Source of the DNA: a virus
Taxonomy: Duplodnaviria; Heunggongvirae; Uroviricota; Caudoviricetes
DNA: 4,828 bases
IMG/VR virus record: IMGVR_UViG_2695420822_000011
Strand: one strand, 5' to 3'
Shown: piece after piece, positions 129 to 4,828 of the stretch
How the letters are laid out: each line of letters starts with the position of its first letter
Position numbering within the stretch: position 1 is the first letter of the stretch
The notes under the pieces: model-generated
The model's database searches: none
Seen by the model: only the letters and a program-made list of their open reading frames with translations
What the model was told of the DNA's origin: nothing
Program-made: the position numbers and the translations under genes

Positions 129-414
129 NNNNNNNNNNNNNNNNNNNNNNNNNNNNNNNNNNNNNNNNNNNNNNNNNNNNNNNNNNNNNNNNNNNNNNNN
201 NNNNNNNNNNNNNNNNNNNNNNNNNNNNNNNNNNNNNNNNNNNNNNNNNNNNNNNNNNNNNNNNNNNNNNNNNNNNNNNNNNNNNNNNNNNNNNNNNNNN
301 NNNNNNNNNNNNNNNNNNNNNNNNNNNNNNNNNNNNNNNNNNNNNNNNNNNNNNNNNNNNNNNNNNNNNNNNNNNNNNNNNNNNNNNNNNNNNNNNNNNN
401 NNNNNNNNNNNNNN
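129..414. other. Assembly gap (286 consecutive N)
   Basis: Uninterrupted run of n characters. The ORFs in the track that span it (76..453 +, 87..446 -) are artefacts of translating N. Confidence 0.99.
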
Positions 415-478
415 TTAGATGAATATTTATCGCGCAGTGACATCATTTTTTAATAATAGTTCAAAAAAAGGGCTCACG

Positions 479-1561
479 ATGAAAAAATTAACAGTGGCAA
501 TTTCTGCTGTAGCTGCATCAGTACTGATGGCGATGTCTGCTCAGGCAGCTGAAATTTATAATAAAGACAGTAACAAGCTGGATCTGTACGGGAAAGTTAA
601 TGCTAAGCACTACTTCTCCTCTAATGATGCAGATGATGGTGATACTACTTATGCCCGTCTTGGCTTCAAAGGTGAAACCCAAATCAACGATCAACTGACT
701 GGTTTCGGTCAGTGGGAATATGAATTCAAAGGCAACCGCGCTGAATCTCAAGGTTCCTCCAAAGATAAAACCCGTCTTGCCTTCGCTGGCCTGAAATTCG
801 GTGACTACGGCTCCATCGATTACGGCCGTAACTACGGTGTAGCATACGACATCGGTGCGTGGACTGACGTCCTGCCAGAATTCGGTGGTGACACTTGGAC
901 TCAAACAGATGTGTTCATGACTGGTCGCACCACTGGTGTTGCAACTTATCGTAACAACGACTTCTTTGGTCTGGTTGATGGTCTGAACTTTGCTGCTCAG
1001 TATCAGGGTAAAAATGACCGCACTGACGTAACTGAAGCTAATGGTGATGGTTTCGGTTTCTCCACTACTTATGAGTATGAAGGATTCGGTGTAGGTGCAA
1101 CCTATGCTAAATCTGACCGCACTAATAATCAGGTTATCTACGGTAACAACAGCCTGAATGCATCTGGTCAAAATGCTGAAGTATGGGCAGCTGGTCTGAA
1201 ATATGATGCGAACAACATCTATCTGGCTACCACCTATTCTGAAACCCAGAACATGACTGTTTTTGGTAATAACCATATTGCCAACAAAGCACAAAACTTC
1301 GAAGTAGTTGCACAATATCAGTTCGACTTCGGTCTGCGTCCGTCCGTTGCTTACCTGCAATCTAAAGGAAAAGACTTGGGTGCGTGGGGTGATCAGGACC
1401 TGGTTGAATATATTGATGTAGGTGCAACCTATTACTTCAACAAAAATATGTCCACTTTTGTTGATTACAAAATCAACCTGATTGATAAGAGCGATTTCAC
1501 GAAAGCATCTGGCGTTGCTACCGATGATATCGTTGCTGTAGGTATGGTTTACCAGTTCTAA
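479..1561 (+). CDS. nmpC: Outer-membrane general porin, OmpC/OmpF/PhoE family, prophage-encoded NmpC / Lc type (360 aa precursor)
   Basis: Translation [23 protein letters not shown]|[16 protein letters not shown]... has a typical Sec signal peptide (cleavage after AQA), a mature N-terminus as in OmpC/NmpC, aromatic/Gly-rich beta-strand pattern and a C-terminal ...VGMVYQF ending in Phe. The track ORF begins upstream at 419, but the ATG at 479 gives the canonical signal peptide. Position next to the Q antiterminator gene matches the DLP12 nmpC and phage PA-2 lc arrangement. Confidence 0.93.
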
Positions 1562-1585
1562 TTTGATTACTAAAAGATATGTTGC

Positions 1586-1602
1586 GGGAGGCTTTGCCTC
1601 CC
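1586..1602. repeat. Inverted repeat / hairpin GGGAGGC-ttt-GCCTCCC, 25 nt downstream of the porin stop
   Basis: Perfect 7-bp inverted repeat read directly. No U-tract follows on either strand, so it is not a canonical intrinsic terminator; it may be an RNA-stability or processing hairpin. Confidence 0.5.
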
Positions 1603-1610
1603 CAACATAT

Positions 1611-1632
1611 AAGTGGCTCCCTCAAGCCACTT
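1611..1632. repeat. Inverted repeat / hairpin AAGTGGCT-ccctca-AGCCACTT
   Basis: Perfect 8-bp arms with a 6-nt loop read directly; no adjacent U-tract. Confidence 0.5.
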
Positions 1633-1697
1633 CCTTTAGGAGCACAACCTTGCTTCTAACTATATAAACCTTCTGTTATATATTACCCTTTATTTTT

Positions 1698-1722
1698 GGG
1701 GGCGTTGCAACGCCCCATTTTT
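1698..1722 (+). terminator. Rho-independent terminator for the porin transcript
   Basis: GC-rich perfect palindrome GGGGCGTTGCAACGCCCC (1699..1716) immediately followed by ATTTTT. On the minus strand the same hairpin is followed by an A-run, so it is oriented for the + strand. Confidence 0.8.
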
Positions 1723-1749
1723 AATAATTTTTAGTAAACAATTGGCATA

Positions 1750-2133
1750 TTAATTAGAGTTATTAACAACGATATCCATCTCTAACCGGATATCTAATGC
1801 CATTAACATCCCTTCAATTATGCCCTCAGCCTTCTGTAACCTTTTCCCGATATAACCATCAGAGCAGCAATGCTTACCTGCCAGTGACATGAATGTCATA
1901 CCGACTACATAATAATCTACTAATAAATCGTGCAAATCGCTGTTGTTCTTTTTCAGACGGGCCATGCACCCGCAAATAATCATCGCGTCATCGTCACAAC
2001 ATTGCGGGCGAGATTTTACTTTTGAAGTAATTAATCCCTTAAAACCGGCGGCAATGGACGACCAGGTCACATCTTCATGATTATTAGCCGCCCACGCTCC
2101 CCAACGCTCAAGAACCATCTGAATATCACGCAT
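1750..2133 (-). CDS. quuD: Late-gene antiterminator Q (DLP12 QuuD / YbcQ type, 127 aa)
   Basis: Translation [26 protein letters not shown]...[16 protein letters not shown]...DIVVNNSN matches my memory of E. coli QuuD. Start ATG at 2131..2133 is preceded by GGAG at 7-nt spacing. The track ORF begins at an upstream TTG (2148) that is unlikely to be the real start. Confidence 0.88.
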
Positions 2134-2218
2134 CAACTTACTCCACAAAAATCAGACCAGAACGCCAATTACAAGCAAAAATCAACAAAACAGTATTAGT
2201 TGATTGTTATCTCTGACT

Positions 2219-2356
2219 TCATACTCCTGCTCCTGTCAGGGTTTTGGCGTAATTCTTCAGTATTCGGTAATCGGTCAAAACAGAACCGGGGAAACGATAT
2301 AAGCGCAGATGCCCCCAGCGGTGGCGAAGAAGTTCTGCCATATAAAACTCAAACAT
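2219..2356 (-). CDS. ylcG: Small prophage protein, YlcG-like (45 aa)
   Basis: Minus-strand [48 protein letters not shown] found by hand (below the ORF-track size cutoff). Its ATG overlaps the rusA stop (TGATG), and it fills the rusA-quuD gap where K-12 has ylcG. Confidence 0.65.
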   Translation of the reverse strand: MFEFYMAELLRHRWGHLRLYRFPGSVLTDYRILKNYAKTLTGAGV

Positions 2357-2718
2357 CATTCATTCCCCATTTCGGTGATGGTCAGTTCCAGCCTCCCACC
2401 TTTGGTAACAGGCATCTTCACAACGCGGTAATCAACGACCTGAGCATCATCCAGCCAGAAACCTGCTTTGGTGAGTGCGTCAAAAGCGGCTTTTTGCAGA
2501 TTATCCAGGTCACGGCGACGGCGATCCGGCATGTGGCACTCAATACGGATTTTCACTGGCATAGCCAGGCCGATATCCAGCATTGCGTTTTTAATGATTC
2601 GGGTGACGTTATCGCGGTATGCCTGCCCTTCTGCGCTGATGTGTGTGCGCCCGCGATTATGGCGGTAATAGCGGTTATTGCTCGGAGGCCAGGGTAATGT
2701 GATGCTGTAGGTATTCAC
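2356..2718 (-). CDS. rusA: Crossover junction endodeoxyribonuclease RusA (Holliday junction resolvase, 120 aa)
   Basis: Translation [26 protein letters not shown]...[12 protein letters not shown] is essentially identical to E. coli K-12 RusA as I remember it. Its start overlaps the ybcO stop (ATGA). Confidence 0.95.
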
Positions 2719-3005
2719 GCCTTAATAACCCCCTCTTTCAGCCAGATAACCTGCGTTCTCGCCATACCTTCCAGCGCGCATTCTTTTGCATACTCAGCAT
2801 CGACAAAATATGTGCGGCGGTCGATTTCGTCGTGACAGGCAGAACATGCAATGGTGGCAATCAGGTCTGGCGGTTTGATACCGGTACCGCACAATCCAGC
2901 CAGCCGGATATGTGCCAGTACTGACGTTTCAGGATTGCCATTACATACGCCAGGGATTCTTACCTGGCATTCCCGACCACGCGCTGCTTTTCTCAAATCA
3001 GCCAT
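2715..3005 (-). CDS. ybcO: YbcO-like prophage protein (96 aa, Cys-rich, putative nuclease)
   Basis: Translation [37 protein letters not shown]... with several Cys residues. Length and position (between ninE and rusA) match DLP12 YbcO. Confidence 0.82.
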
Positions 3006-3169
3006 GATTCCTCCTTGCTGCCAGTCGCAACCATTTTTTTATCAACCAGGCTAGCGGTATATCCGAGCAGTGTTGGTATTTCGGATGGCTTCAGCTCAGG
3101 CTTACGCTTACGACGATTTGATACTCTGTAGATGTGCCCGTTCATGACACGAATAAGCGGTGTAGCCAT
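2993..3169 (-). CDS. ninE: NinE-family small protein (58 aa as encoded here; C-terminus possibly frameshifted)
   Basis: Hand-translated minus-strand [61 protein letters not shown]. The start overlaps the ybcN stop (TAATG). A 7-nt A run (plus-strand T run 3034..3040) precedes the C-terminal 13 codons. Confidence 0.7.
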   Translation of the reverse strand: MATPLIRVMNGHIYRVSNRRKRKPELKPSEIPTLLGYTASLVDKKMVATGSKEESWLI

Positions 3170-3624
3170 TACGCCTCCTGCTTATCGCGCAGCTGCTGGT
3201 ATTCACAGCTCTGCGGAATTGTCAGGTGGCAGCCGATATTCATCGCCCAGGCTTCGACTTTGCACAGGAAGATGTACATCTCGCCGGTTTCCAGCTCTGA
3301 CGTATGGCGGAGGGATTGGACGGTGGTGACCTCGCCGGACACGACATCTACACGGTCTTTGCTTTCGTAGCCGAGATAGGTGTGCTTCATCGCGTCTTTG
3401 ACCCACTCAGGCGTAGCGAAGGTCTTGCCGCGGGCGATGAGATATTCGCTGATCTCCGTGTACCACATGTGGCTGAGCGCGTTCTGCGACAGGCTGCGCT
3501 TCTCGCGCCACGGCTTAACCTGCAGGCGTAAGCATTGCCCGGCATCCAGCAATGGCTGAATCTGCTGGCCGATGGCCGCGAAGTTACCGCGATGGAGTTT
3601 GATGCCGTCTACTGGCAGAGTCAT
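3169..3624 (-). CDS. ybcN: NinB-family protein (DLP12 YbcN-like, 151 aa; reported DNA base-flipping / recombination-associated)
   Basis: Translation MTLPVDGIKLHRGNFAAIGQQ...REKRSLSQNALSHMWY... contains the RSLxQN motif shared with lambda NinB. Strong SD (GGGAGG, plus-strand 3629..3634) lies 4 nt upstream of the ATG at 3622..3624. Confidence 0.85.
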   Translation of the reverse strand: MTLPVDGIKLHRGNFAAIGQQIQPLLDAGQCLRLQVKPWREKRSLSQNALSHMWYTEISEYLIARGKTFATPEWVKDAMKHTYLGYESKDRVDVVSGEVTTVQSLRHTSELETGEMYIFLCKVEAWAMNIGCHLTIPQSCEYQQLRDKQEA

Positions 3625-3650
3625 ACGGCCTCCCTAACGGAAACCGCAGA

Positions 3651-3680
3651 ATGCAGAAAATCGCAGGTGCATTTCTGCAT
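3651..3680. repeat. Inverted repeat ATGCAGAAA-(12 nt)-TTTCTGCAT upstream of ybcN
   Basis: Perfect 9-bp arms read directly, 27 nt upstream of the ybcN start. Function unknown (operator or terminator-like element). Confidence 0.45.
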
Positions 3681-3711
3681 CTGTGACAAGGTGATGAGTT
3701 CAGATTGTGGT

Positions 3712-3735
3712 CGCATTTAAGTCCCCTTAAATGCG
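3712..3735. repeat. Inverted repeat CGCATTTAA-gtcccc-TTAAATGCG
   Basis: Perfect 9-bp arms with a 6-nt loop read directly, in the divergent intergenic region between ybcN and the AT-rich cassette. No flanking U-tract. Confidence 0.45.
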
Positions 3736-3822
3736 CAGAAGTCACCGGAGTTGTTCAGGCTCCGATGAGAGGATTATGGCGGATTGATTACGATAAATCA
3801 AAACTATCTTGAAGCCAAAACA

Positions 3823-3851
3823 GTGATCTTCGCTTTAAAAACCTTGTATAC
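3823..3851 (+). promoter_or_regulatory. Candidate sigma70 promoter for the AT-rich cassette (-10 TATACT at 3846..3851; weak -35 GTGATC at 3823..3828)
   Basis: Hexamer match only: the -10 has 5/6 matches to TATAAT, the -35 is poor. Sits about 38 nt upstream of the ATG at 3889. Confidence 0.25.
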
Positions 3852-3888
3852 TTTCACCTAATCACAGCCAGAACTATGGATCTAACCA

Positions 3889-4266
3889 ATGACCAACAAA
3901 GAAAACAAAGATAAATATATTAACAAGTTCAAGAAAGAGCTTTCAAAATATATACAACCAACTGCTGGAGTGGACATTCAATTATTTAACTCTAAGGATG
4001 GTGGTGGTGTAATTAAAGCCACTTTGAATAGAAGTGGAAAAAGAAAATCATCTATTGCTGGTAATTTTACTAAATTAGGTGAGGCAATTACCTCGAGTGG
4101 GCAGAGGGTTTTTGGTGGTGATCTATCAAATGTGAATTTTTACGGAACAAATACGATTTTTGATGGAGATACAATATTTTTAATTAAATCACCTGATTCA
4201 GAGGAGTGGTCATCACAAAAAGCTTCCAAAGACGTAGAGGGCATCGTATTTGGAGGGAAAAAATGA
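3889..4266 (+). CDS. Hypothetical protein, 125 aa, Lys/Gly-rich, no transmembrane segment, no recognisable domain
   Basis: Long ORF in very AT-rich DNA, translating MTNKENKDKYINKFKKELSKYIQ...GGDLSNVNFYGTNTIFDGDTIFLIKSPDSEEW...GIVFGGKK. Its stop overlaps the next gene's start (ATGA). Weak RBS. Confidence 0.6.
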   Translation: MTNKENKDKYINKFKKELSKYIQPTAGVDIQLFNSKDGGGVIKATLNRSGKRKSSIAGNFTKLGEAITSSGQRVFGGDLSNVNFYGTNTIFDGDTIFLIKSPDSEEWSSQKASKDVEGIVFGGKK

Positions 4267-4691
4267 TTAACATTACTACTAAGGATGGCACTCAAGTCAG
4301 TGGTGAAGTAAGAGATCTAGTAATTCTTCTTGAAACTGATGGAAAAACGGTGTCTGATTATTTGCAGCCAATCCCTCCCAAAAAAGATACACACTGGAGC
4401 ATGATTTTCATTCCGGTAGCAATTTATATACTACTTAATCTTGTATACATTATTGCTCACCCATTATTTCCTGAAAAATATCTAAAAACATCAACATCTA
4501 TATTTCTATTCATTTCCTTCATATTAAGTGCAATAGTAGCATATTTTGTTTTCCATAAGCATAAATCTGCCACTCTATCCATATGCAGCTTAGTGTTCTT
4601 AGTGTTAATTGTAGGTGCTAACGTAGGGTTTATCAGTTACAGCGACCTAACACAAAAAGCGACGCAAAAATTAGATAGTTTGTCTAAATAA
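4263..4691 (+). CDS. Hypothetical small membrane protein, 142 aa: about 45-aa soluble N-terminal domain followed by three predicted transmembrane helices
   Basis: ATG at 4263 is preceded by a strong SD (GGAGGG, 4252..4257, 5-nt spacing) and overlaps the upstream stop. Hydrophobic stretches at roughly residues 45-69, 77-97 and 103-125 (WSMIFIPVAIYILLNLVYIIAHPLF; SIFLFISFILSAIVAYFVF; LSICSLVFLVLIVGANVGFI) with short K/H-rich loops. The track's upstream extension to 4206 is probably not translated. Confidence 0.65.
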   Translation: MINITTKDGTQVSGEVRDLVILLETDGKTVSDYLQPIPPKKDTHWSMIFIPVAIYILLNLVYIIAHPLFPEKYLKTSTSIFLFISFILSAIVAYFVFHKHKSATLSICSLVFLVLIVGANVGFISYSDLTQKATQKLDSLSK

Positions 4692-4698
4692 TTATGTT

Positions 4699-4719
4699 GC
4701 CATGCGAAGTATGCATGGC
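4699..4719 (+). repeat. Inverted repeat GCCATGC-gaagtat-GCATGGC just after the cassette stop (possible terminator stem)
   Basis: Perfect 7-bp arms read directly, 8 nt after the TAA at 4689..4691. No clean U-tract follows, so a terminator call is weak. Confidence 0.35.
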
Positions 4720-4798
4720 TGCATGTCTGCCTTCCATTTAAAATGGGCTAAGACCTATAACCCTAAATATTATTCTTTATTATCTTCTTTACCACTTC

Positions 4799-4828
4799 GG
4801 TGATGCTGCCAACTTACTGATTTAGTGT
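4799..4828 (+). mobile_element. IS1 left terminus (5' end of a second IS1 copy, in the same orientation as the one at 1..40); 23-bp terminal repeat 4799..4821
   Basis: GGTGATGCTGCCAACTTACTGATTTAGTGT matches the IS1 left end upstream of insA as I remember it. The window ends inside the element. Confidence 0.85.

Follow-up and report, generated by a model that had tools for sequence, protein, structure and literature searches.

What kind of gene lies at positions 479–1561 of a 4,828-nt stretch of viral DNA (hereafter the window), and could its product still behave as the phage-borne porins of Escherichia coli do? Such porins affect antibiotic permeability and the availability of receptors for phages and colicins, and the PGAP label 'porin OmpC' masks in this case a phage gene of the NmpC/Lc type linked to the ipeX element. 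As set out below, the gene very probably specifies a complete general-diffusion porin of the NmpC/Lc/OmpD group that looks functional, carried as a 'moron' by lambdoid prophages of the DLP12 type in E. coli and Shigella and acting in the manner of Lc and NmpC. The features of the window are collected in Table 1.

Table 1. Features of the window (position 1 is its first nucleotide; loop positions are predicted)
Feature	Position	Strand	Description and basis
IS1, terminal 40 nt (IRL end)	1–40	−	Exact match to K-12 IS1I
Run of 286 N over the porin promoter region	129–414		238 nt in near-identical DNA
Unmasked proximal leader	415–478	+	Weak Shine–Dalgarno sequence AAGGG 8–12 nt before ATG 479; sequence
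Porin CDS	479–1561	+	360 codons and a stop codon; type NmpC/Lc/OmpD; same protein as WP_000737275.1
Signal peptide, 23 residues	479–547	+	Ends AQA, mature start AEIYNK; PDB alignment, PA-2 record
CAGUGGC, possible pairing site in codons 5–7	492–498	+	Complementary to the 5′ end of RybB sRNA; in-silico match
Mosaic patch	907–1715	+	About 81–85% identical to K-12 DLP12; nucleotide comparison
L4 (predicted), codons 177–190	1007–1048	+	3 residues shorter than NmpC/Lc: T---DVTEA versus SDFDNYTEG
L5 (predicted), codons 214–231	1118–1171	+	Most divergent segment: 10 substitutions and a 2-residue deletion versus NmpC/Lc
L6 tip (predicted), codons 263–267	1265–1279	+	GNNHI versus ADHFV
L8 (predicted), codons 334–350	1478–1528	+	Four substitutions versus NmpC
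3′UTR, 161 nt	1562–1722	+	Homologous to ipeX; four stem-loops and an intrinsic terminator; sequence, fold, terminator scan
quuD, Q antiterminator	1750–2133	−	Convergent with the porin; Phage_antitermQ, E 4e-53; 127/127 identical to K-12 QuuD
Cassette gene 1	3889–4266	+	125-aa soluble protein; PHROG match, unknown function
Cassette gene 2	4263–4691	+	142 aa, soluble N terminus and hydrophobic stretches; PHROG match, unknown function
Second IS1, first 30 nt (IRR end)	4799–4828	−	Oriented as the first; exact IS1 end

The list of open reading frames gives an open frame at 419–1561 on the plus strand, in which the ATG at 479 opens a 360-aa product ending at a stop codon at 1559–1561. In a search of the PDB, residue 24 of the query pairs with residue 1 of the mature chains of crystallised porins, which puts the cleavage site of the signal peptide behind residue 23, the last residue of AQA; the PA-2 record (J02580.1) marks the same 23-residue sig_peptide. 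The C terminus reads GMVYQF, and the final Phe, the aromatic residue of the β-signal, is present. A preliminary description of this DNA had called the ORF full length, with a complete signal peptide and a C-terminal Phe, and each of these statements holds for the uninterrupted frame; alignment to Lc, to reconstructed NmpC and to OmpD, which it had proposed as a check, reveals neither a frameshift nor a truncation. Some annotation pipelines use an in-frame ATG at 419 and report a product of 380 or 385 aa. We rejected this start (380-aa product) as a likely annotation artefact: no Shine–Dalgarno sequence precedes it, the signal peptide would no longer be N-terminal, and ATG 479 is the start used for both PA-2 and PGAP. 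Near the start of the coding sequence, the 7-nt RybB complement CAGUGGC occurs once in the whole window, and this putative site is consistent with the reported targeting of nmpC mRNA by RybB (PMC3333887).

The product is confirmed as a general bacterial porin of the OmpC/OmpF/PhoE type, far beyond a chance match. It matches the Pfam family PF00267 (Porin_1) with E 3.1e-153 over the whole profile (1–337 of 337; porin residues 29–360), and it scores 518 bits against the 'porin OmpC' subfamily model of NCBIfam (cutoff 484), the equivalog cutoffs for PhoE and OmpF not being reached. The PDB search matched 48 distinct sequences of enterobacterial porins with solved structures, at E values from 1e-108 to 2e-137, with solved chains of OmpC, OmpK36, OmpK37 and PhoE at about 1e-135. 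An AlphaFold2 model built from 38 homologues (mean pLDDT 68, pTM 0.67, pLDDT below 50 in the L3 region) predicts a 16-stranded β-barrel, with 16 long strands, and Foldseek aligned it to 6v78, 2j1n and 6rd3 (OmpK37, OmpC and OmpK36, respectively) with TM scores of 0.83–0.86 and a probability of 1.00. The model is of moderate confidence, so the loop boundaries used below are approximate. The motif of the L3 constriction loop, PEFGGD, lies at residues 133–138, and all six equivalents of the OmpF eyelet residues (K16, R42, R82, R132, D113 and E117) are kept. The porin thus shares its fold, eyelet residues, PEFGG motif and C-terminal motif with OmpC, OmpF, PhoE and OmpN of K-12 and with OmpK36 and OmpK37 of Klebsiella, and differs from these proteins in the external loops; its identity to the OmpK36 and OmpK37 structures is about 58–63%.

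Comparison with named relatives places the gene more narrowly. Its identity is 90% with PA-2 Lc (329 of 365 alignment positions), about 90% with reconstructed K-12 NmpC and 80–82% with Salmonella OmpD, against 64% for K-12 OmpC, 62% for OmpF, 64% for PhoE and 68% for OmpN, in agreement with the NmpC/Lc type first proposed for it. PA-2 Lc (also called protein 2; J02580.1) and reconstructed NmpC differ from one another at 4 residues. Lc and the window porin share the whole signal peptide and their first 98 residues, and the gene order and the ipeX-type 3′UTR are alike; the 36 alignment positions at which the proteins differ, five indel residues among them, fall mostly in loops L4, L5, L6 and L8. 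The K-12 gene (b0553, in the cryptic prophage DLP12, or qsr′) occupies the same type of locus, next to a QuuD that is 100% identical, and the preliminary description had stated, correctly, that it is disrupted by IS5 near its 3′ end. NC_000913.3 annotates nmpC as a pseudogene: IS5B interrupts it after codon 346, which cuts off the last 58 nt and costs the interrupted copy its last 19 residues; rejoining the fragments gives an open frame of 365 aa. The window copy, by contrast, is uninterrupted and carries a divergent patch of 800 bp. OmpD of Salmonella enterica, according to the literature a major porin encoded on the chromosome, differs in its signal peptide and in the length of L6. The exact protein is found in the active Escherichia phages PhiR34_1 and PhiR68_2, where it is named OmpD (100% identical), and relatives at 63–99% identity occur in 40 further phage records.

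The surroundings of the gene are those of a lambdoid prophage. Downstream, an ORF on the minus strand (1750–2148, annotated start 2133) matches the Pfam family Phage_antitermQ, and its stop codon and that of the porin are 188 nt apart, tail to tail. Rightward of quuD, also on the minus strand, follow ylcG, rusA, ybcO, ninE and a gene of the ybcN family. On the opposite side of the porin, close relatives carry essD, rrrD, rzpD and the terminase genes. This holin side is visible in the relatives L002, L003 and L012, in K-12 and in PhiR34_1, and in the window it is cut off by IS1. The earlier claims that the porin is prophage-borne and convergent with the Q antiterminator both stand: the flanks are phage genes, quuD faces the porin, and PhiR34_1 encodes the identical protein in the interval from Q to holin S, followed by the identical 3′UTR. 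The moron sits on the opposite strand, with the Q antiterminator gene on one side and the late/lysis region on the other. E. coli ETEC1747 has the same 4.7 kb inside an apparently complete lambdoid prophage, in the order terminase, nohD, iss(bor), rzpD, rrrD, essD, porin, quuD and on to P, O and the repressor.

The window itself is a remnant of a DLP12-type prophage, with an IS1 390–438 bp upstream of the porin start codon and another 3.2 kb downstream. A prophage fragment of 4,758 bp lies between two direct IS1 copies, and both edges are exact IS1 ends, so that the window is most likely a contig assembled from short reads that stops at these copies. The left IS1/prophage junction (as a 34-mer) had no match among species-representative genomes; both junctions are present in CP049179.1 (L012), which is 99.93% identical to the window over 415–4828. 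The left IS1 of L012 is complete; it is a simple insertion, marked by an 8-bp duplication (CCAATTTT), and separates the porin from the lysis genes. The right IS1 is truncated to 231 bp and adjoins another transposase gene, and further IS elements lie near the prophage region. The gene itself does not differ from that of other carriers of WP_000737275.1; in the window, IS1 interrupts the surrounding prophage on both sides.

Where the porin departs from NmpC, it does so in a confined region. The two proteins are separated by 32 substitutions and 5 indel residues, none of them before residue 149, and they cluster at residues 149/151, 182–187, 216–231, 263–267, 302–312 and 335–347. On the strand boundaries of the AlphaFold2 model, these clusters map to the end of L3 and to loops L4, L5, L6, L7 and L8, so that the predicted external loops hold 24 of the 32 substitutions and all of the indels. 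In the comparison with NmpC/Lc, the 16-residue stretch at residues 216–231 is changed to DTQVNAGKVLPEVFASGK, and at residues 263–267 GNNHI is changed to ADHFV. These are the two Ser/Asn/Gly-rich segments that had been singled out as the likeliest places of difference; the comparison with NmpC/Lc confirms them, and they correspond to the predicted L5 and L6. In these two loops the window motifs (NNQV...) are nearer to OmpD than to NmpC.

The nucleotide sequence delimits this region sharply. Mismatches with K-12 number 10–31 per 100 nt within 907–1715 and 0–2 on either flank; within the porin gene, nt 1–428 differ by one base and nt 429–1083 by 125. Synonymous divergence (dS) from K-12 accordingly rises from 0.02 before codon 143 to 0.85 after it. 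In the divergent part, the barrel has a dN of 0.026 against a dS of 0.51, which amounts to strong purifying selection on the barrel between alleles, and the loops have a dN of 0.27. Through this 800-bp patch the allele carries loops L4–L8 that are closer to those of OmpD, with no change to the barrel or the pore lining. We read 907–1715 as a recombinational exchange of a loop cassette, and its sharp boundary makes it a clean example of such an event between porin alleles. Another allele, P0034, combines L4–L6 of the NmpC type with L8 of the window type, which shows that such porin mosaics are common. A second block divergent from K-12 begins near position 3200, in the ybcN-family gene.

The patch runs on into the 3′UTR, which the preliminary description overlooked although ipeX is part of the known lysogenic-conversion effect. 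Positions 1562–1722 fold at −64.6 kcal/mol (z = −8.2 against shuffled sequences), and the terminator scan places an intrinsic terminator at their end, with a stem at 1699–1716 followed by a run of T. The K-12 sequence downstream of nmpC is identical to the 3′UTR of PA-2 lc, and the window differs from both at 7 of about 192 positions; the differences either lie in hairpin loops or preserve pairing (A-U to G-U). To judge from these comparisons, 1562–1722 is the ipeX element, 7 positions removed from the K-12/PA-2 sequence that was tested. A search of the window against Rfam at E ≤ 1 returned no family, which indicates that ipeX has no Rfam model. In the relative, a Trp_leader match of 20.8 bits fell below the cutoff of 41 and was judged to be due to chance. 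In published work, ipeX represses OmpC and OmpF (PMC12197685, PMC5069750).

By analogy with Lc and NmpC, the porin would be transcribed in the lysogen from a promoter of its own, against the direction of late transcription. The porin promoter of PA-2 is CRP-dependent, and its counterpart in the window would lie in the masked stretch. The product would then be exported by Sec and assembled by BAM into trimers, and these trimeric general-diffusion pores would furnish the cell with an additional or alternative major porin. The ipeX element at 1562–1722, made within the porin transcript, would lower OmpC and OmpF post-transcriptionally, as the homologous element does; the phage porin would thereby partly replace the host porins and change permeability and the receptors for phages and colicins. 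PA-2 itself uses OmpC.

Because the prophage is riddled with IS elements and the upstream region is masked, an intact gene does not establish an expressed one. The same anchors that bound the 286 N of the window are 237–238 nt apart in every close relative, L012 included, and the excess of 48 nt reflects either a real insertion or masking that altered the length. Of the CRP sites annotated in the PA-2 lc record, the promoter-proximal one has exact copies in L012 and L002, close relatives of the window; in the window its position falls within the mask. In L012 the distal of the two PA-2 sites lies on the far side of IS1 from the porin, and in the lineage of the window IS1 likewise stands between the distal site and the gene. 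The masked stretch probably also holds the Q-dependent late promoter of essD, to judge from a tR′-like terminator on the minus strand of L002 (7963–7942).

The most serious alternative is that the gene is intact and transcriptionally silent, a quiescent relic of a decaying prophage and too young to have decayed itself. An intact nmpC of E. coli B is reportedly quiescent, going by the title of Prilipov et al. 1998 (cited in PMC3333887). IS1 ends at both edges of the window, with more IS elements nearby in L012, speak for such decay, as do the loss of the distal CRP site annotated for lc to the upstream IS1 and a scan for consensus σ70 sites in the unmasked upstream region of a relative, which found no promoter-like site. 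Against this, L012 keeps about 390 bp upstream of the gene, including the promoter-proximal CRP site; active phages keep the identical gene; and the barrel has been held under strong purifying selection between alleles. Homologues of nmpC are, moreover, expressed elsewhere: in the literature, the intact homologue of Shigella flexneri is induced anaerobically, in part through FNR, that of the uropathogenic E. coli (UPEC) CFT073 is expressed preferentially at 37 °C (RNA and protein), and that of Nissle 1917 was detected in vesicles. Taken together, we consider silence a possibility to be kept in mind, though an unlikely one.

Considerably less likely is that the porin and ipeX survive as a host-domesticated module in an IS1-rich lineage, probably of the Shigella sonnei type, in which the OmpD-like loops and ipeX re-tune OmpC and OmpF. 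The upstream IS1 would then have separated the porin from the lysis genes and from the distal CRP site, the second IS1, beyond the nin genes and a two-gene cassette, would have cut off the replication genes, and the upstream excess of 48 nt could be a real regulatory insertion. If this were so, susceptibility to phages and colicins, or virulence, would be altered in a way not seen in K-12.

That the gene is the chromosomal ompC of the host, and not a phage gene, is suggested by its PGAP name (ompC) and by its passing the NCBIfam model 'porin OmpC'. That model is, however, of the 'subfamily' type and not an equivalog; identity to K-12 OmpC is only 64%, as opposed to 90% to PA-2 Lc; and the neighbours are Q, RusA, NinE and the holin rather than micF and rcsD, beside which K-12 ompC lies, outside any prophage. 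Gene neighbourhood and identity together refute this reading, to which we attach almost no weight. Just as remote is a cryptic pseudogene, open but with inactivating substitutions, for which nothing specific speaks beyond the degraded state of the surrounding prophage, and which we rejected as very unlikely given that the protein is identical in plaque-forming phages and thousands of genomes, that every invariant family residue checked is present and that the frame has neither a frameshift nor a premature stop.

The reading of 479–1561 as a complete NmpC/Lc/OmpD-type moron porin is correct but ordinary, since thousands of genomes, and active phages too, encode this very protein; the gene, the protein, the genomic position and the 3′UTR regulator have all been described before. 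Records from E. coli and Shigella list it (WP_000737275.1) under the name 'porin OmpC', 'OmpD' or 'LC'. The exact protein is present on at least 1,000 contigs, with Shigella sonnei among the name records, and is indexed in 17,488 blocks of an assembly collection. The loop-coding segment 1000–1300 is shared at ≥99% identity by 644 complete-genome records of E. coli, with 406 more at 95–99% identity, both from 5,426 genomes, and about one fifth of complete E. coli genome records carry this loop allele.

Several minor observations concern the porin locus in other phages and the far end of the window. In the deposited genome of phage 434 (OL657227.1) a porin gene is interrupted by IS5 after codon 346, just as nmpC is in K-12, which suggests that this region came from DLP12, and phage P7 (AF503408.1) has an nmpC relative at 82% identity. 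In the window, the cassette at 3889–4691 has a GC content of about 33% amid nin genes of about 52%, lies on the strand opposite to them and joins its two genes by an ATGA stop/start overlap. Its products match PHROG 18061 and 16940, both of 'unknown function', and neither ORF has a Pfam match above cutoff or a match in PADLOC. Judged by eye, the 142-aa product looks like a protein with about three membrane helices. The two genes are a candidate moron or exclusion module; they fill the slot that ybcL–ybcM occupy in K-12 and PhiR34_1, and are also found in Enterobacter.
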